From an uncultured archaeon (lineage in GTDB: Archaea; Asgardarchaeota; Lokiarchaeia; Sigyniarchaeales; SOKP01), in NCBI GenBank assembly GCA_964388035.1, contig CAYLZE010000076.1:3188-24181 (forward strand): DNA of 20,994 nt, written 5' to 3'. The translations under genes and the position numbers were made by a program. The notes beneath the pieces were generated by a model. It was not told where the DNA came from and made no database searches. It saw only the letters and a program-made list of their open reading frames with translations. Of the stretch, positions 1-10,554 are shown in pieces (the first letter of the stretch is position 1; every line of letters begins with the position of its first letter).

Positions 1-3000
1 CAAATCCAAGATGGGAATTCAATATGTTCTAATGGGAAGGATGGAATTCACATTCTATCCGGCAATATGAATATCATCGATGATAATACGCTGAATGATA
101 ACCAAGAAAACGGAGTTTTTATATATTTTAGCACCTATACTACCATTTCAAATAATGATCTGAATAATAACGGAGTATTAATAGGTGCCGGTATTCATTT
201 AGAAGGATCAAATTCTTCACTCATTATAACTAATGAAATCCATGGAAATATTCACGGAATATTTTTAATAGATTCTTGTTTCAATAATACCCTATTAACT
301 AACACCATTAGTAATAATGATGGTTTTGGCATTTTCCTTGAGCAAAGTTTCAATAATACAATTCGGGAAAATGAAAATACATTCAATGAACAGGGAATAG
401 GATTAAAAAATAGTTATTATAATAATCTCACTGGCAATTTTTTTGATTTTAATACTTTATACGGGATCAATTTCACGGGTTCTTTTAACAATTATCTTTT
501 TGATAATAATATCACTCGAAATGGCCGCTGTGGAGCATTATTTATCAGTAGCAATTATAATACCATTATTTCCAATTATTTTGATTATAACGCAATATGC
601 GGGATTAACTTGACTGACTCGTCAAATAATTATTTCTTCAATAATAACGCAACCTTCAACATGAATGGCATTTCCTTAGAAAGCGGAGCAGATAATAATC
701 ATTTCTTTTCAAATAACATTTCAAATAACACGAAAAAAGGAATGTATATACAAGGAAGCGATAATAATATCGTGGAAAGGAACATGATAATGAATAATGG
801 TGAATTTGGCGTTAGAATCTTAGATACTAATTCATATCTTAATTTATTTTTTAATAATAGCTTCATTAGTAATGCGATAAATGCTTTTGATTCGGGAAGT
901 CATAACGATTGGAATTCCACTATCGGAAATTATTGGGATGACTATAGTGGAAAAGATGCTAACGATGATGGAATAGGTGATACAGGTTATTTAGTAAATT
1001 ATACCCGGCCATATGGCATTGATTACTTGCCTATTTGGTGGGATAGACCAGTGATTAATTTAACATCTCCTTCTAACTATAGTGTATTTGGAATCCCTCC
1101 ACCCGAATTTATCCTAAGGATACTAGAAGGGCTTAGCAATACCACGTGGTATACAATAAATGGAAGTTCAACTATTAATATTTTTGATATGAACACCACG
1201 ATTAATCCCGTTGGGTGGGCAAATTTGGGAAATGGATCCCTTTTCATCACATTTTACGCGAATGATTCGCGAGGATGGATAAGTCTCCCTGAAAGAGTCT
1301 ATTTATGGAGAGATATATATGCCCCCACTATTAATGTGATTTATCCAAATGAACACTTGTTAGTAGGAGTTGAGGTGATCGACTTCAATGTTATTATTCA
1401 TGACCCACACTTAGACACCATGTGGTACTCGTTAAATGGAGGAGCTAACATCACGTTCACTCATAATGGTACTTTTGACTTATCTGCGTGGAGTGATTTG
1501 CCAAATGGAACTATCACCATCGCGTTCTATGCAAATGATACTGTAGCAAACCAAGGATCCTATATTTTTGACATTCAAATCGATATTTTCATCCCTCTTC
1601 TTGTTGTAAATGCCCCAGAGAATCATACACTCTGGGATTTGCCTCCCCCCATTAACCTAACGGTTTACACCACGAAATTTAGCAGAATGTGGTATACAGT
1701 CACCGGGAATTCCACGAAATTTTACGTGGATAATAACACGGAAGTACTTCTAAATATTTACGCATGGTATGAATTACCGCAAGGATGGTTTATAATTCGA
1801 TTTTATGCTAATAATACCGTGAATAATATCAACGATACGTACTATGTTCTTTTATGTAAAGATACGTTAGCTCCTATCATTACTATTATTTCTCCCTATA
1901 AGAACGAATATGAGAGAGTTGACGTCGTGCCGGATTACCAGATTACGATTGACGAACCGAACTTAGATAAGGTATGGTACACCATCGAAGGAGGAACCCA
2001 AAAATATTTCATTACCAGTTTGAGCGGTAAATTAAATAAACAAGCTTGGGAAACAATAGCCAGTTCCCTCCGTGATGGAGGAACGGTTCTGATCACGTTC
2101 TATGCCAATGATACGCTGGGGCACGTGGGAGTATCCTCCGTAATGGTCATTAAGTACACCCCCGGAGCTTCCAAGCCGGGACAAGGTCCTAATGAAGTGC
2201 CCCCCGAGGAAGAAGAAAATGTAATCAGCCCCCAAGATTTGGCAATTCTTATCTTTTTAGGTATATTTGGAATTATCGTATTTTCGAGCACTCTGGTTTC
2301 AAAAAGAAAATTAACCGAGGAGGAAGTAATAGTACAGGATAAACTGCAGAAGAAAAAATTAAAAATCTCCTTGAAAGAGAAGGAAGTCTACTTCTTGGCT
2401 TTAGATGAGAAAGCAACATCTAAAAATAAGCTCAGGCTTCTTCTATTCATCATATCTCAAGCTATTTTAGCATTCGCGTGGGTCCTCATATTTTCTCTGT
2501 TAGATTATATTAATGAAATTAGTATTTTATTATTACTTTTAATCGAAATGGGCTTATTCATTTATCCCGTGCATTTAATTAACAAATTATTTGTGAAAGA
2601 AAAGAAACTTGACTTTAAGAAATTGGGATACACGTTCATTCTAATTGGAATGTATGTTGCTTGTTCCTTATTCTATATCTTTCTTTTCAGTCCGTATTTC
2701 GGAATCCCAATCGGGATAATTTTATCTCAATTATTAATATGCGTGGTATTAATAGTCGGACAGTTTTTGGTGAAATTCATTAATAAAGCCATTAATGCCG
2801 TGAGATCGTTTTCATGGGTCTCGATAATAGTTTTTTCCTTCCTATATTTATTGGAGATGGAGTTTACCTCCTTGAGGGTTGTAATTACTTCGCTTTTAGT
2901 CCTAGTATTATTGTTCATCTCGCTGCAATTAGGAAAAGTTTATGACTTCAAGAACGTATTCAAGAAGAAACCAAAGGAAAAAGAGCTAGATGATTTTCTT

Positions 3001-4068
3001 TCGATAAGACCATATCTGGGATATATTTGGATAACTATCGTCTTATTATTGTCGATAACCATTTATGCATTTACTACTCTCTATCTTTCATGGTCATGGT
3101 ATAGATCTTTAGTGCTCGCGGGGGTTATCTTCTATTTACTCATAATGTTCATCCTATTGGAAAACCCCGAGGGTCTTGGAACGCGACACAATCGCAAGGT
3201 ATTAGTGTGGACAATGGTGTGGTGCGCACTCATGCTTCTCTTTATTATGGTGTTAATTAACAATAATTTTACGGTTTTAATACCTGTCTTGATAATCGAG
3301 CTAATGCTAATAACTCTATTTCTCATAAGACCGTTAATAAAAGATGCAAAAGAGAACAAGAAAATAAGCCACCAAGCAAAAATTAGATTCCTTATTTCTG
3401 TAATAGTTCTCTCATTCTTCTTAATCATGGGCATTCTCATCGGAACGTTACTATTAGGAATTCCTTTTGGTTCATTGGCATTTACCATATTAATTCCGAT
3501 ATTAATCCTGGAAATATTTCTCGTCTGCTTATTGTTTATCACTCCAATAATCAGTGATAGGTTAATACGAGCCAAAGAAAGCAAGAATTTTAAAAGAAGA
3601 TCGCTCTTTTATATTAGCTTTCTCATCATCTTCTCAATTATAATTATAATAGTTGGGGCAATATTAATGGGTATTTTTCCCGCTCTTTTTGTACTTTCGA
3701 TTTTAATGATCTTGCTAACAATTGAAATATTTCTTTCAATATCGTATCTAGTAATCAAACAAGTTCAAAGTAATAGGAAGGAGAGAAAAGGTTCTCGCGT
3801 GAAACAATACTCCTTGGTGTTTACTTGCAGCTTGTTTTTCATCATGGCATTTATTATAGGGCTAATTCTCTTATCAAATAACATGCCAGTCTTGCCCATT
3901 TTCATGTTACTCATCACGATAGTTATCGAGATTGTTGCGATATCCCTCATTAAAAATAAGATGAGATATCATTCTAAATATCATTTAATCTTAACTATTA
4001 CTATAATTGTGGGAATTATTATCACTTGGACGTGGTTTTTATCTTATTTAATTAAATTAAATGCATGA
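1..4068 (+). CDS. Large cell-surface glycoprotein, 5'-partial: NosD/CASH-type right-handed beta-helix, four ~90-aa Ig-like repeats, then about 18 TM helices
   Basis: Frame 1 is open from base 1 (QIQDGNSICSNGKDGIHILSGN) into the track ORF at 67, so the start lies upstream of the window. It has ~22-24-aa GIxLxxSxxNxIxxN beta-helix repeats, the NosD-type cap GNYWDDYSGKDANDDGIGD, many N-x-S/T sequons and a hydrophobic C-terminal half. Confidence 0.88.
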   Translation, partial: QIQDGNSICSNGKDGIHILSGNMNIIDDNTLNDNQENGVFIYFSTYTTISNNDLNNNGVLIGAGIHLEGSNSSLIITNEIHGNIHGIFLIDSCFNNTLLTNTISNNDGFGIFLEQSFNNTIRENENTFNEQGIGLKNSYYNNLTGNFFDFNTLYGINFTGSFNNYLFDNNITRNGRCGALFISSNYNTIISNYFDYNAICGINLTDSSNNYFFNNNATFNMNGISLESGADNNHFFSNNISNNTKKGMYIQGSDNNIVERNMIMNNGEFGVRILDTNSYLNLFFNNSFISNAINAFDSGSHNDWNSTIGNYWDDYSGKDANDDGIGDTGYLVNYTRPYGIDYLPIWWDRPVINLTSPSNYSVFGIPPPEFILRILEGLSNTTWYTINGSSTINIFDMNTTINPVGWANLGNGSLFITFYANDSRGWISLPERVYLWRDIYAPTINVIYPNEHLLVGVEVIDFNVIIHDPHLDTMWYSLNGGANITFTHNGTFDLSAWSDLPNGTITIAFYANDTVANQGSYIFDIQIDIFIPLLVVNAPENHTLWDLPPPINLTVYTTKFSRMWYTVTGNSTKFYVDNNTEVLLNIYAWYELPQGWFIIRFYANNTVNNINDTYYVLLCKDTLAPIITIISPYKNEYERVDVVPDYQITIDEPNLDKVWYTIEGGTQKYFITSLSGKLNKQAWETIASSLRDGGTVLITFYANDTLGHVGVSSVMVIKYTPGASKPGQGPNEVPPEEEENVISPQDLAILIFLGIFGIIVFSSTLVSKRKLTEEEVIVQDKLQKKKLKISLKEKEVYFLALDEKATSKNKLRLLLFIISQAILAFAWVLIFSLLDYINEISILLLLLIEMGLFIYPVHLINKLFVKEKKLDFKKLGYTFILIGMYVACSLFYIFLFSPYFGIPIGIILSQLLICVVLIVGQFLVKFINKAINAVRSFSWVSIIVFSFLYLLEMEFTSLRVVITSLLVLVLLFISLQLGKVYDFKNVFKKKPKEKELDDFLSIRPYLGYIWITIVLLLSITIYAFTTLYLSWSWYRSLVLAGVIFYLLIMFILLENPEGLGTRHNRKVLVWTMVWCALMLLFIMVLINNNFTVLIPVLIIELMLITLFLIRPLIKDAKENKKISHQAKIRFLISVIVLSFFLIMGILIGTLLLGIPFGSLAFTILIPILILEIFLVCLLFITPIISDRLIRAKESKNFKRRSLFYISFLIIFSIIIIIVGAILMGIFPALFVLSILMILLTIEIFLSISYLVIKQVQSNRKERKGSRVKQYSLVFTCSLFFIMAFIIGLILLSNNMPVLPIFMLLITIVIEIVAISLIKNKMRYHSKYHLILTITIIVGIIITWTWFLSYLIKLNA
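1048..2154 (+). repeat. Four tandem ~90-93-aa Ig-like beta-sandwich repeats (protein-level)
   Basis: Units start at 1048, 1324, 1594 and 1873. Each follows P-x-(I/L)-x-(L/V/I)-x-x-P...WY(T/S)xxG...W...G...I-x-FYAN(D/N)(S/T). Confidence 0.85.
3202..3960 (+). repeat. ~70-aa transmembrane hairpin repeat with a conserved intramembrane Glu (protein-level)
   Basis: Glu codons at 3298, 3511, 3724 and 3928 (spacing 213, 213 and 204 nt) lie in PVLIIELM, PILILEIF, ILLTIEIF and ITIVIEIV. FTVLIPVLIIE...AKENK aligns with FTILIPILILE...AKESK. Confidence 0.7.
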
Positions 4069-5931: not shown

Positions 5932-6327
5932 TTGTTTGGACATAAAGATAATTGGATTGAATTAAAAAAAATGAAAGCTATTGGAATTGTGTTTTTATTC
6001 GACAAAAAAGTAGGCTCCCCCGAGGATATTTCCAAACAGTTTAGCAAGTATTTTTCGAATGTGAGTGAAAATTTCGTGAAAGAAGGTCTAATGGATCTCG
6101 TTGAATTAAAAAGCATTTTGGACTCTAAGAAAATCTTTTGGGGGGGCATAAAAGAGGATTTTGAAAACTTGCTAAAAAATGATGAGCTAATTGGGGATCT
6201 CGCTTGGAATGTATTTAAAAAGCACGTGAATATTGAAGCTGCAGAAGATATAAGAACATTGATTTACCAAGCATCAGATGCTCCCTGGGGCTTTACCTTA
6301 ATAGCAAACGTGTTGTATGAAGAATAA
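5932..6327 (+). CDS. Hypothetical soluble alpha/beta protein; the start may be ATG 5971 (MKAIGIVFLFD...)
   Basis: Open frame with protein-like composition, co-oriented with the upstream gene and followed by a T-rich tract. No family recognised. Confidence 0.75.
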   Translation: MFGHKDNWIELKKMKAIGIVFLFDKKVGSPEDISKQFSKYFSNVSENFVKEGLMDLVELKSILDSKKIFWGGIKEDFENLLKNDELIGDLAWNVFKKHVNIEAAEDIRTLIYQASDAPWGFTLIANVLYEE

Positions 6328-6839: not shown

Positions 6840-7508
6840 TTAAATATTTTTGGATTCTTTAAACACTTCAAAAACTTCTTTTTCAAACTCAACGGTCTCT
6901 TCGGGAAGTAAATTTGGTTCTTTGATTAATTTTGCCATGTAATAAATTTTTGATGCTCTTTCAAGATATTCCAAAACAGTATATGCCCCATCTAAATGGC
7001 TTCCACAACAAAGATTTCCATGATTGGGTAAAAAGAGAGCATTTTTTTCCCCCAAGCTCTCCACCACATTTTGTGCAAGTTCTTCAGTCCCTGCTTCCGC
7101 ATATTCTGCGCAGATTATCTCTCCCCCCACATAAGGAACCAATTCTTCAATAATAGGGGGTAATGAAAGTTTGAGCGTGCTTAGAATTGTAGAATAAATG
7201 CTATGAGCATGAATTATTGCATTTACATCGTCTCGTGATTTATAAACTCCCAAATGTAAGTGCTTTTCTACAGAAGGGTTTTTATCTCCCTCAATAACTT
7301 TTCCATCCATGTCCAAGATTAGGATATCCGAGGGATCCATCTCTACATATCTTACTCCGCTAGGCGTGATGAGCATGAATTCTTTATCATCCTTTTTTAT
7401 TCTGACACTTACATTTCCCGCAGAACCAATAACGTGCCCTTTTTCCACTAATTTCAAGCACAATTCTACTATTTCTTTTTTCAAATCAAGAATTAATTGA
7501 TCGTTCAT
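6840..7508 (-). CDS. fucA: Class II aldolase/adducin family protein, L-fuculose-1-phosphate aldolase-like
   Basis: Phosphate-binding GSAGNVS and ITPSG, catalytic Glu in PSVE, Zn ligands HAH and NHG. It overlaps the upstream gene by ATGA (7505-7508). The substrate is not established. Confidence 0.88.
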   Translation of the reverse strand: MNDQLILDLKKEIVELCLKLVEKGHVIGSAGNVSVRIKKDDKEFMLITPSGVRYVEMDPSDILILDMDGKVIEGDKNPSVEKHLHLGVYKSRDDVNAIIHAHSIYSTILSTLKLSLPPIIEELVPYVGGEIICAEYAEAGTEELAQNVVESLGEKNALFLPNHGNLCCGSHLDGAYTVLEYLERASKIYYMAKLIKEPNLLPEETVEFEKEVFEVFKESKNI

Positions 7509-8518
7509 GGTGTTTTTTTTCCTTTATTATATACTTCAGGATTTAAAATATTTTTCGGCATTTCGTTATTTAACCATAATTTGATATCTTCCACGATCAG
7601 TTTTCCCTGTCGTGCGAAGATCTCCTCTGTATTTCCTCCTACATGAGGGGTGACGATAACATTTAATAACTCTAAAAATTCGTTATCTTCATCAACGGGC
7701 TCCATTGGAAACACATCAAGGGCGGCACCACCGATTCTTTTTTCTTGTAACGCCTCATGCAATGCATCATAATCTACTAAACTGCCCTTAGAGGTATTAA
7801 TTAAAAAAGCTGTCTTTTTCATCATGCCAATCCGATCTTCATCAACAAGATTATCATTTTCATCACTGGCCATCACATGAATCGTAATGAAATCGGACTC
7901 TTTCATTAATTCGTCTAGTTCCACTTTTTTTCCGTATGGCTTGATGCTTTCTTCTGGAACATAGGGATCATAGATGAGAAATTTTACTTCAAATGGTTTT
8001 AGACGATCTGCAACCCTCCTACCGATCTGACCAAATCCAATGATCCCTATAGTTTTATTTTTCAATTCAAATCCGACAAATCGATTTAAATAATCCAAAT
8101 AATCATCAAATTCGATCACTTCAAACTCATCTGAGTGAAGAACGCGATCGATCTGCTGCAATTTTCTCGCGAGAGATAACATTAAACCAACCGCCAATTC
8201 TGCAACCGCATCCACATTTCTAAGAGGTGTATTTAATACGGGAACATTATTCTCAGTAGCCGCTTTTAAATTAACATTAAAAGGGTCTCCTCTACAAGAT
8301 ATGACTAATTTTAATTTTGACTTTTCAAAAAAATCTGCTTTTTTAAGATCATCAGCTTCTGTAATAAAAATATCATAACCCTCCAATTTTTCTAAAAGCT
8401 CTTCCACCTCAAAATAAAGCTCTTTCGTGATCCTCCATGGTTCATAAGTAACCTCTAGCATGGTCTTTAATTCATCCAAACTCTTTTTATCTAGGCAAGC
8501 TGTAATGTAAGCTTTCAT
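7505..8518 (-). CDS. D-isomer-specific 2-hydroxyacid dehydrogenase family, NAD-dependent (SerA2-like, no ACT domain)
   Basis: NVDAVAE, Rossmann GIIGFGQIG, acidic YDPY, ALDVFPMEP and TPHVGG. SD-like GGAGG upstream. Confidence 0.9.
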   Translation of the reverse strand: MKAYITACLDKKSLDELKTMLEVTYEPWRITKELYFEVEELLEKLEGYDIFITEADDLKKADFFEKSKLKLVISCRGDPFNVNLKAATENNVPVLNTPLRNVDAVAELAVGLMLSLARKLQQIDRVLHSDEFEVIEFDDYLDYLNRFVGFELKNKTIGIIGFGQIGRRVADRLKPFEVKFLIYDPYVPEESIKPYGKKVELDELMKESDFITIHVMASDENDNLVDEDRIGMMKKTAFLINTSKGSLVDYDALHEALQEKRIGGAALDVFPMEPVDEDNEFLELLNVIVTPHVGGNTEEIFARQGKLIVEDIKLWLNNEMPKNILNPEVYNKGKKTP

Positions 8519-8608
8519 GGTTTGTAGCCTCCTAATCGTTTCAATATTATATAATTTGTCTAATAATTAAACTATTATTCTATAAATATTAAAAAAAAAG
8601 AAATTAAT

Positions 8609-8959
8609 TTAGAACATGAGACTTTTTAATTTCATTAAATTCCTGGCTTTTCCCTCAACTATCTTAATCTTTCCCGAAGAATAAGCCTTAACGCCCCCAA
8701 TTTTCTTATTAAACATGTCTATCATGACCTGTTCTGAGGTAAAATCTATTTTAACCGGCGCATTATCATCCCCTACTCCGATTTTCGTCTCAATACCTTG
8801 ATCCTTATTCACTAAAAGAAGTGCTTTTCGTCCGGAATCTAAAAAGGTCATTTGGATGGGCTCATCATACGTTTTAAGCTTAGCTTTTGTTTTCTCAGAA
8901 CTATTATATCGATTTTCTATTTCTTTTAAACAATCTTCCACTTTTTCAAACTCTGACAT
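8609..8959 (-). CDS. SCP2 (sterol carrier protein 2) domain lipid-binding protein
   Basis: 116 aa with the typical SCP2 C-terminal signature (MIDMFNKKIGGVKAYSSGKIKIVEG...LMKLKSL). Confidence 0.8.
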   Translation of the reverse strand: MSEFEKVEDCLKEIENRYNSSEKTKAKLKTYDEPIQMTFLDSGRKALLLVNKDQGIETKIGVGDDNAPVKIDFTSEQVMIDMFNKKIGGVKAYSSGKIKIVEGKARNLMKLKSLMF

Positions 8960-9039
8960 GTTAGATCAACTTTTGTATTATTATTGTGTTCACGAAAAAG
9001 AATTTAAGATCTTTAATAAAACATGAGAAATTTTAACCT

Positions 9040-10554
9040 TTATAAATCTTCAATTTTATCATTTATCTGTCTCCATTCGGAGTATAAGGTCTTATATTTA
9101 TCGGCAATCGCTTGATCTGGGGAATAAAAATCATGTTCAACAAATTTCTCTATTAACTCTGTTTCACTTTTATTATAATCCAATCCAATTAGAGTATTCA
9201 TCGCCAATCCAATAAAAGCAGAATCTTTGGTTTTTTTCGGGACTTTTATCTCAGTATCCAAGATATTAGCTAAAATCTTACAAGTTTCTTCTGAATTTGC
9301 TAATCCACCAGCACAAAATGTAGTACTTTTAGAATTGGTAAATTGTTTCAAGAAATTATAATTTTCTAAAATGCCAAATCCAATGTTGTCGATTACTGCT
9401 TTTGTAAAATTCGGGAGCTTGGTAAATTCCTCGGCAACAATTACTGGAGCTCGAAAAACAAAAACTCCTCTTTTAATTGAGGTTTGATCCTTAATTTTAG
9501 TGAGTTCCGGGCCTAAGAAAGCCAAGGTAGAATCGTCTTGGGGATCTACACTCTTTAAATGAGTTTCTACCAATTCATCGGGATCATCCGTTAATCCTTT
9601 CAAAAAACAATCCTTATACCAATCATATACAGTTCCAGTATTTCCTGCATTTGCTTCTAGCATCCAAGTATTTTTTATCGAATGATTGATTAACCAATGA
9701 TCTCCTTCCGGGTCCAATAATGGTTTATCTAAAATAAGATGAAGTGGTCCGGTAGTTCCTAAAGTAAGACCAATATCTCCAGCATGCACGGCACCCATCC
9801 CTAACAAGGATGCTTGAGTGTCTCCACCGCTTTTTATTACAGGAATTGTGTGTTCTCCGATTCCTGTTAATTGTAGCATTTTAGGCGTCAAATCACCTAC
9901 GATAGTTCGGGGATCAACTACTTCAGGAAACCAATTAAAATCAAAATTAAATGCTTCAATGATTTCTTCACTCCAGGTTTCTCTTTTAACATCAAAAAGT
10001 TGAGAATCCGATGCGGAAGTTCGATCTGTATAAAAATTTCCCGTTAGTTTGTAAATAATCCAGTCATCAAGCATTAACACTTTATCAACCTTCTCATACT
10101 TATCTTCCTCTTCTTCTTGGAACCATAAAAGACGAGCCAAGCAGAATAGCATGGGTGGAATATGCCCCGTTATTTGATAAAGTTCTTCATCAGTGAAATG
10201 ATCTTCTATGAGATAAGCTGAATCTATGCCTCGAACATCAATATTGGGTCCACCATAAATCTCCTTGCCCTTCTTGTCCAAAAATACTGCAGCCATTCTC
10301 TGGGCACAAGAAGATATGCCTATGATTTCTTCTGGTGCTATGTGTGCTGTTTTTAATGTTGATTTTATACCATTCACAACAAGTTCCCATAATTCATCCA
10401 TGTTAAAACTTCTCGCAAATCCATCTAAATCTTCAACTACAAAATTGATTTCCTTTTGTGAAGCTGCAAGTAAATCCAGATTTTCAGAAACTAAACCAAT
10501 TTTGACACTTTTAGAAGATATATCTATACTTATAATTTTTCTAGAATCTGTCAT
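9040..10554 (-). CDS. FGGY-family carbohydrate kinase, LsrK (autoinducer-2 kinase)-like subfamily
   Basis: N-terminal IISID, IAPEEIIGISSCAQR, PNIDVRG, ARLLW, GGDTQ, LGTT and AGG..S motifs; 504 aa. Confidence 0.9.
   Translation of the reverse strand: MTDSRKIISIDISSKSVKIGLVSENLDLLAASQKEINFVVEDLDGFARSFNMDELWELVVNGIKSTLKTAHIAPEEIIGISSCAQRMAAVFLDKKGKEIYGGPNIDVRGIDSAYLIEDHFTDEELYQITGHIPPMLFCLARLLWFQEEEEDKYEKVDKVLMLDDWIIYKLTGNFYTDRTSASDSQLFDVKRETWSEEIIEAFNFDFNWFPEVVDPRTIVGDLTPKMLQLTGIGEHTIPVIKSGGDTQASLLGMGAVHAGDIGLTLGTTGPLHLILDKPLLDPEGDHWLINHSIKNTWMLEANAGNTGTVYDWYKDCFLKGLTDDPDELVETHLKSVDPQDDSTLAFLGPELTKIKDQTSIKRGVFVFRAPVIVAEEFTKLPNFTKAVIDNIGFGILENYNFLKQFTNSKSTTFCAGGLANSEETCKILANILDTEIKVPKKTKDSAFIGLAMNTLIGLDYNKSETELIEKFVEHDFYSPDQAIADKYKTLYSEWRQINDKIEDL

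Follow-up and report, generated by a model that had tools for sequence, protein, structure and literature searches.

Introduction

What do a sugar-type kinase and a sugar-type aldolase do together with a lipid-binding protein in an Asgard archaeon? This question is raised by four adjacent minus-strand genes on a 20,994-nucleotide stretch of DNA (hereafter the window; contig CAYLZE010000076.1 of assembly GCA_964388035.1, positions 3,188 to 24,181 of the forward strand) from an uncultured member of the Lokiarchaeia. They encode a kinase of the FGGY family (9040-10554, 504 aa), a stand-alone protein of the SCP2 fold (8609-8959, 116 aa), an enzyme of the D-2-hydroxyacid dehydrogenase (2-HADH) family, here called DH (7505-8518, 337 aa), and a zinc class II aldolase of the dihydroxyacetone phosphate (DHAP) type, here called ALD (6840-7508, 222 aa). 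It is strongly supported that the four genes, SCP2 included, form one conserved functional module. As to what this module does, we lean towards a catabolic role in which it would act on a hydrophobic molecule, probably one that resides in the membrane, and release DHAP from its polyol or ketose end.

Conservation and arrangement of the module

Gene neighbourhoods were surveyed by an SCP2 search of 40 related genomes and then in 80 further loci of named Asgard metagenome-assembled genomes (MAGs) from Prometheo-, Heimdall-, Hod-, Hermod- and Thorarchaeota and Sigynarchaeum. Among the Asgard loci with sufficient flanking sequence, all but very few have the SCP2 gene directly before DH and aldolase, and the wider flanks vary. 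Recurrence in about 80 loci from other genomes puts this arrangement far beyond what chance would produce. A first-pass annotation, made from the DNA letters of the window, had proposed the cluster as a pathway and named loss of SCP2 from beside the enzymes in other genomes as a finding that would count against it; instead, SCP2 is kept beside them across the Asgard loci and, in bacteria, within single-polypeptide fusions.

Four arrangements were distinguished. In type A, to which the window belongs, the order is kinase, SCP2 and DH·ALD, with a soluble SCP2 protein and the kinase upstream on the same strand. In type B, a membrane-anchored SCP2 protein stands beside a DH·ALD fusion, and the FGGY kinase, which is divergent (~28% identity), is usually encoded on the opposite strand. 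Type C is a tight operon of abutting or overlapping genes in the order SCP2-DH-kinase-ALD-aldehyde:ferredoxin oxidoreductase (AOR). Finally, the bacterial fusion joins FGGY-2HADH-SCP2(x1-2)-Aldolase_II in one polypeptide of 1,260-1,500 residues. A search of the window's genome recovered the type A module only. In 14 related type A loci a winged helix-turn-helix regulator gene on the opposite strand is inserted between kinase and SCP2; co-transcription is therefore not required, and the cluster is not always one operon.

The module is common but patchy in the Asgard phylum: a close match to DH or DH·ALD was found in 61 of 251 genomes sampled evenly across the phylum, about a quarter, and in 25 of 89 high-quality genomes. 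An exhaustive, profile-free search with a fused orthologue as query gave about twenty representative four-part proteins (1,220-1,485 residues), with domain order determined by Pfam, of which one is annotated in a Chloroflexota MAG, and at least 500 relatives at bacterial loci in metagenome contigs; an earlier homologue search with the fusion had only Asgard fusions among its best 120 matches. Domain by domain, each module of the bacterial fusion is homologous to the matching window protein, the kinase corresponding to the N-terminal module. Separate genes in the order SCP2-DH-kinase-aldolase occur on a bacterial-looking contig of 72% GC. In a tree of the DH module, Asgard types A and B group in a well-supported clade apart from that of the bacterial fusions, and the deep nodes are weak. 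Because the DH clades are separate and the domain order differs, the fusions in Asgard archaea and in bacteria probably arose as independent events, and such independence would strengthen the functional link among the parts.

In the window itself, the first-pass annotation had described four co-oriented genes separated by gaps of 80 and 90 nt and, at the last junction, an ATGA overlap, and the open reading frame (ORF) listing and a direct reading of the DNA agree with it exactly. The spacer between kinase and SCP2 (8960-9039, minus strand, 80 nt) is AT-rich, with a run of five T residues and a TATA-like sequence (TTTATTAAAG). The spacer between SCP2 and DH (8519-8608, minus strand, 90 nt) is likewise AT-rich, with a run of nine T residues, TATA-like tracts and an AGGAGG motif 8 nt before the DH start, and the DH stop and the aldolase start share the four letters ATGA on direct reading. 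The motifs VTYEPW, RGDPFNV and TPLRNVDAVAE of the DH and IEELVPYVGG and CAEYAEAGT of the aldolase, from which the same annotation had argued, are all present in the sequences. Its further statement that no isomerase or transporter adjoins the cluster holds in the gene annotation of the window.

SCP2 protein and its link to the membrane

If the four genes form a unit, the SCP2 protein is its unusual member, and its identity has to be secure. The Pfam assignment is marginal for the window protein (PF02036, E-value 1.2e-4, 22.8 bits against a cut-off of 21.3); relatives score 33-47 bits. Despite this, the weak call is confirmed by the predicted structure, since the AlphaFold2 model is confident (pLDDT 86.5) and a Foldseek search with it matched SCP2 domains of alkylsulfatases, Thermus, archaeal and human SCP2, and UbiJ (E-values of 5e-7 to 3e-4). 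The protein is 57-83% identical to orthologues encoded directly upstream of DH·ALD, and we presume it to be a carrier of the hydrophobic substrate or product. The window's genome also holds a second, distant SCP2-like ORF (G000:C78:21527-21784, 114 aa, 34% identity to the window SCP2), and paralogues of this kind are present in several relatives.

Two features outside type A point to the membrane. First, SCP2 in type B forms the C-terminal part of a 253-333-aa protein whose N-terminal part has two transmembrane helices, and a linker of roughly 70-130 residues, rich in proline, serine and lysine, connects the two; in the predicted topology, the positive charges lie on the cytoplasmic side. Second, a basic amphipathic motif (e.g., KKGFFKRLFGG), which we take to resemble the membrane-targeting helix of MinD, lies just before the SCP2 domain in half of the bacterial fusions inspected (7 of 14). 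These tethering features are convergent. A subset of the bacterial fusion loci is moreover set among genes for thiolase, TetR, P450, acyl-CoA synthetase, short-chain dehydrogenase/reductase (SDR) and acyl-CoA dehydrogenase. The proposal of the first-pass annotation that the substrate or product is hydrophobic thus gains independent support from the two-helix anchor and the MinD-like motifs, for a hydrophobic or membrane substrate in general; the particular substrates that it suggested, bacteriohopanetetrol or a glycolipid, do not share in that support.

Directly upstream of the type B SCP2 gene in seven Heimdall-type loci (L089, L091, L092, L095, L096, L099 and L103) lie genes for a Ras-family small GTPase, a split thiamine pyrophosphate enzyme and a ThiS-like protein. 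The split enzyme resembles the subunits of sulfopyruvate or phosphonopyruvate decarboxylase.

Kinase

The kinase was recognized in the ORF listing, by direct reading and by Pfam (FGGY_N, 1e-47; FGGY_C, 3.7e-6). Against the NCBIfam models it scores 206 bits for XylB (cut-off 380), 200 bits for LsrK (cut-off 528; E-value 4e-59) and 126 bits for GlpK (cut-off 590), and its closest solved relative is LsrK, the kinase of autoinducer-2 (AI-2) (PDB 5ya0, 1.1e-34), with xylulokinase next. Judged by these scores, it is a distinct FGGY subfamily that resembles LsrK and XylB about equally. In the phosphate-1 loop, canonically D-x-G-T, type A has DISS, type B D(A/S)GS and the bacterial fusions D-x-G-G, so that the aspartate is kept throughout; the GGD motif is present in the window kinase. 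In type A loci its orthologues, at 47-63% identity, are encoded at the corresponding place.

The resemblance to LsrK suggests a pathway for the degradation or salvage of AI-2 (4,5-dihydroxypentane-2,3-dione, DPD) without LsrF, in which an LsrK-like kinase would make phospho-DPD, followed by reduction and an aldolase split. Besides the LsrK matches, the SorC-family regulators that precede the bacterial fusion, which belong to the family of LsrR, fit this pathway. However, the LsrK score is well under its cut-off and equal to that for XylB, the SCP2 protein and its membrane anchors would be unexplained, and genes for LsrG, LsrF and LsrACDB were absent from the window and the loci examined, the rest of the genome not having been searched for LsrF and LsrG. 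We give this pathway the least credence of the alternatives considered here.

Dehydrogenase and aldolase

The aldolase (Pfam Aldolase_II, E-value 3.3e-52) is closest in the PDB to FucA of S. pneumoniae (4c24, 1.4e-45, ~45% identity) and to an enzyme of B. thuringiensis (6btd, 3.1e-43). It retains the GN.S, TPSG, HAH and NHG motifs and the catalytic Glu; HAH, NHG and the Glu of NPSVEK align with the zinc ligands His92, His94 and His155 and with Glu73 of E. coli FucA, and are kept in types A and B; the phosphate-binding motifs are likewise intact. In FucA, Tyr113' and Phe131 fit L-lactaldehyde in the aldehyde pocket. In the alignment to the E. coli enzyme these residues are replaced in the window by Glu (IEEL) and Ala (AEAGT), and by Glu or Asp and Ala across types A and B, whereas S. 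pneumoniae FucA and 6btd keep Tyr and an aromatic residue. The best NCBIfam FucA model, NF005302, scores 197.9 bits (cut-off 264) and TIGR01086 scores 131 (cut-off 400). By these residue and cut-off tests, the enzyme would work like a DHAP aldolase and not as a fuculose-phosphate aldolase.

Further aldolases occur in the same genomes. In type A, a second stand-alone class II aldolase (~225 aa, 38% identity) and a xylose-isomerase-like TIM-barrel gene lie 1-5 kb downstream at L038 (10433-11107) and at 10 other loci, and the window's genome has two additional aldolase paralogues on contig C5.

The DH is assigned to its family by Pfam (2-Hacid_dh_C, E-value 5.5e-56) and by its match to PDB 1wwk (2.2e-52), and it retains GFGQIGRR and YDP of the NAD site, the catalytic His (TPHVGG) and the Glu (FPMEP). 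It falls below the equivalog cut-offs for phosphoglycerate dehydrogenase or glyoxylate reductase (TIGR01327, 227.9 against 454; NF009714, 203.6 against 455), and a look-up in the ESM Atlas returned generic 2-HADH clusters only. The subfamily is marked by C-R-G-D-P-x-N-V, by T-P-x-R-N and by an insertion of ~10-20 residues. The substrate Arg of the family, which binds the 2-oxo-acid group, is Lys (NTSKGS/NTAKGS) in the window and in all type A orthologues and is kept as Arg in type B and in the bacterial fusions. The catalytic residues of aldolase and DH are conserved across the types. Two Asgard matches to the DH (G239:C1:847868-848929 and G236:C185:579-1625) carry in-frame TGA or TAG codons and may be pseudogenes, cases of recoding or assembly errors.

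In most relatives DH and aldolase are one fusion protein of 540-582 aa, and they are split only in the genus of the window and in one other operon type, type C. A sequencing frameshift in a run of eight A residues was considered as the cause and ruled out: in the sister genome G001 the split falls in the same linker, at a different junction that has its own ribosome-binding-like site. The split is thus a real, inherited fission.

Neighbouring genes and the nature of the product

What leaves the aldolase besides DHAP is suggested by the genes nearby. AOR is encoded near the module in 6 Asgard and 8 bacterial loci, and in type C its gene abuts or overlaps that of the aldolase; an aldehyde dehydrogenase gene lies directly upstream of the module in the bacterial locus L120, and an aldo-keto reductase gene lies nearby in 12 Heimdall-type loci. 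Because such enzymes recur near the module, an aldehyde is the likely product, made together with DHAP by a true aldol cleavage; the same recurrence speaks against an OtnC-type decarboxylase.

The decarboxylase would be expected on a route of the kind known for tetronates, where the kinase would act on an acid sugar, the DH would yield a beta-keto acid phosphate and the aldolase-fold enzyme, acting like OtnC or 3OtnC, would release DHAP or a pentulose phosphate with CO2. The 2-HADH family prefers hydroxy acids; the window aldolase does match the OtnC model (NF043034, 3-oxo-tetronate 4-phosphate decarboxylase) at 121.6 bits, and an SDF transporter, of the dicarboxylate type, lies beside one aldolase-DH-kinase trio that has no SCP2 gene. 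There is also a precedent: in the LtnD/OtnI/OtnK/OtnC and Ltn3D-3OtnK-3OtnC routes (PMC12994016), DHAP is delivered by a class II aldolase-fold decarboxylase that works with a dehydrogenase and a kinase. However, the OtnC score is far under its cut-off of 250 and under those of the FucA models (197.9 bits), and the known routes use a DUF1537 kinase and SDR or beta-hydroxyacid dehydrogenases in place of FGGY and 2-HADH enzymes, end in decarboxylation and have no SCP2 protein or aldehyde-handling partner (PMC12994016). Since the coupling of AOR to the aldolase implies an aldehyde, and since SCP2 would be left without explanation, a tetronate-type route is highly improbable.

Could the aldolase instead run in reverse? 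DHAP aldolases are reversible by established chemistry, and in a synthetic direction the enzyme would add DHAP to a lipid aldehyde, after which DH, as a reductase, and a phosphatase would build a polyol end on a membrane lipid. The type A module lies among housekeeping genes (SRP54, TrmY, dihydroorotase and AMMECR1), and a phosphatase of the inositol monophosphatase (IMPase) family is a frequent neighbour, both of which would suit biosynthesis. Against this, the kinase has no role in that direction, AOR and aldehyde dehydrogenase genes and catabolic-type regulators accompany the module, and its patchy distribution, as given above, is unlike that of a core step of lipid biosynthesis. We regard the synthetic direction as improbable.

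Within type A, about 30 Asgard loci carry after DH·ALD a gene for a ~690-aa fusion of a dihydrodipicolinate synthase (DHDPS)-family, class I aldolase-like domain with one of the aminoglycoside phosphotransferase (APH)/fructosamine-kinase type (e.g., L034:9127-11400 and L066:3196-5271), often accompanied by the IMPase-family gene. These two genes were considered as parts of the module and set aside; they are absent from the window and from types B and C, and we regard them as accessory or of local significance.

Proposed function

Catabolic release of DHAP from a hydrophobic molecule is the reading that we favour, and the scheme that we infer for its step order, its direction and the nature of the remainder, R, is as follows. 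The SCP2 protein would hold the greasy part of the substrate, and the FGGY kinase would, by the chemistry of its family, phosphorylate a terminal primary hydroxyl. The NAD-dependent DH would oxidise the neighbouring secondary hydroxyl to a ketone, creating an end like that of a ketose-1-phosphate, and the FucA-like zinc aldolase, given its intact catalytic residues, would cleave between C3 and C4 to yield DHAP and R-CHO. This aldehyde would then be oxidised or reduced by AOR, aldehyde dehydrogenase or aldo-keto reductase. Two extra conserved arginines in the active-site loops of the DH could hold a phosphate, in which case the kinase step would come first; the pair is the one observation that places the kinase before the DH. 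By aldolase chemistry, the minimal substrate end would be a terminal 1,2,3,4-tetrol, or the matching ketose, on R. As a substrate class, a membrane or amphiphilic terminal polyol fits best.

Several observations weigh against this interpretation. D-2-hydroxyacid dehydrogenases normally use 2-oxo or 2-hydroxy acids, not polyol phosphates. SCP2-less trios of aldolase, DH and kinase, with a DH of the same subfamily, occur in metagenomic contigs, so that SCP2 is not obligatory for the chemistry. The separate DH clades and weak deep nodes mean that the fusions may be convergent and not orthologous. Lipid genes are absent from beside the cluster in the window annotation, and a conserved neighbour that would name the substrate is lacking among the bacterial loci, where no family is found in more than 10 of 85 (~12%). 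Lastly, the bacterial contexts often look like those of soluble-sugar genes, with SorC-type regulators, MFS transporters, a PfkB kinase and an SDF symporter.

This last point leads to the alternative that the module degrades a soluble sugar, alditol or deoxy-sugar to DHAP and a small aldehyde (glycolaldehyde, lactaldehyde or acetaldehyde), with SCP2 serving as a scaffold, a linker or a binder of small amphiphiles. The SorC-family regulators, of the phosphosugar-sensing type, lie directly upstream of the bacterial fusion and the MFS transporters, of the sugar type, beside it; PfkB kinase, GH4 and GH32 are found near other bacterial loci, LarA and a D-lactate-dehydrogenase-like gene lie downstream in L119, and the SDF transporter accompanies SCP2-less trios. 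Among Asgard neighbours, the IMPase-family gene, the xylose-isomerase-like TIM barrel and the second aldolase would suit such a role, as would the identity of the aldolase to true FucA (~45%) and its closeness to DrdA. What this alternative hardly explains is that SCP2 is kept through four independent arrangements, doubled in some fusions and anchored in type B; the replacement of the FucA aldehyde-pocket residues and the lack of an isomerase in the core module also speak against it. Catabolism of a soluble sugar is, on balance, unlikely.

Returning to a hydrophobic substrate, a more specific version would have the module strip the C3 end of terminal-tetrol membrane lipids. Bacteriohopanetetrol, to speculate, has the end group that the aldolase would need, and its cleavage would give DHAP and a C32 hopanoid aldehyde, which AOR would convert to C32 hopanoic acid. 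C32 hopanoic acid dominates sedimentary hopanoids. This version strikes us as doubtful. Hopanoid biosynthesis genes were absent from the annotated neighbour families of the bacterial fusion loci, which does not refute it.

A further role in lipid metabolism, that of a stand-in for a missing glycerol-1-phosphate dehydrogenase, was tried and rejected: PF13685 matches occur in 41 of 41 related genomes, including a 372-aa ORF in that of the window, with a model that is unspecific.

Comparison with known systems

The nearest known systems each share a part of the module. In the FucK-FucA and RhaB-RhaD pathways of E. coli, an FGGY kinase is followed by a zinc class II aldolase, which besides DHAP yields an aldehyde for subsequent oxidation or reduction. 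Unlike these, the module has no isomerase and has in addition a 2-HADH-family DH, mostly fused to the aldolase, and SCP2; its aldolase in the window differs from FucA in missing all NCBIfam equivalog cut-offs as well as in the Tyr113/Phe131 to Glu/Ala replacements of the pocket. The pathway of 5-deoxyribose disposal, or DHAP shunt (DrdK-DrdI-DrdA; MtnK-MtnA-Ald2), has a close class II aldolase (6btd) that makes DHAP and a small aldehyde from a ketose-1-phosphate. The shunt relies on a kinase of the MtnK type and an isomerase of the MtnA type, whereas the module has an FGGY kinase and SCP2, and its ketone is presumably made by the DH.

The kinase-then-DH order proposed for the module has its parallel in the erythritol and glycerol routes (EryA-EryB; GlpK-GlpD), where an FGGY kinase first makes the polyol phosphate, whose neighbouring hydroxyl is then the target of a dehydrogenase. 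EryB and GlpD, in contrast to the DH of the module, are FAD enzymes, and neither an aldolase nor SCP2 follows them. The attachment of an SCP2 domain to enzymes with hydrophobic substrates, or its encoding with them, is likewise familiar from SCPx thiolase, MFE-2, the alkylsulfatases SdsA1 and Pisa1, and UbiJ, and it is such domains that the window SCP2 model matches best; unlike the module, these systems pair SCP2 with no sugar-type kinase, 2-HADH or DHAP aldolase. The same three enzyme families are adjacent in M. tuberculosis as Rv0727c (fucA), Rv0728c (serA2) and Rv0729 (xylB), reportedly without SCP2, a comparison made by annotation only; the SCP2-less trios of metagenomic contigs make such a set plausible. 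By title and abstract, the papers found to mention these genes contain no functional study of them.

None of these nearest systems adds a 2-HADH or an SCP2 carrier to its kinase and DHAP aldolase, and our literature search found no published description of the combination of kinase, SCP2, 2-HADH and class II aldolase. To what was known the present analysis adds the DH/ALD fission in the window's genus, the classification of Asgard loci into three types, the substitutions in the FucA pocket and the convergent membrane-tethering features.

If the favoured reading holds, the module would be the first pathway built on a sugar-type kinase and aldolase to include its own lipid carrier, would add a DH-driven route to the substrates of DHAP aldolases and would give an SCP2 lipid-binding protein of Asgard archaea a definite biochemical function. 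Were the substrate a membrane polyol lipid, it would account for the way in which anaerobes strip these lipids and make use of them; were the hopanoid version true, Asgard archaea and sediment bacteria would harvest carbon from foreign membrane lipids, with SCP2 as the lipid extractor. For the discovery of the substrate, the bacterial single-polypeptide form offers a convenient reagent.

Other features of the locus

The Asgard origin of the window is judged from its relatives, which all carry the label of Asgard archaea. Its GC content is low (~33%), and its other genes are archaeal housekeeping genes encoding SRP54 of the eukaryotic/archaeal type, aIF5A, FEN1, CDC48 and TrmY. On the plus strand, an ORF of 131 aa (5932-6327) that has no Pfam match has counterparts of 50-65% identity close to the module in at least 18 related loci, and in relatives a longin-domain protein is often encoded nearby. 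Also on the plus strand (1-4068) lies an ORF of more than 1,333 aa, open at the window start, with NosD/beta-helix repeats.

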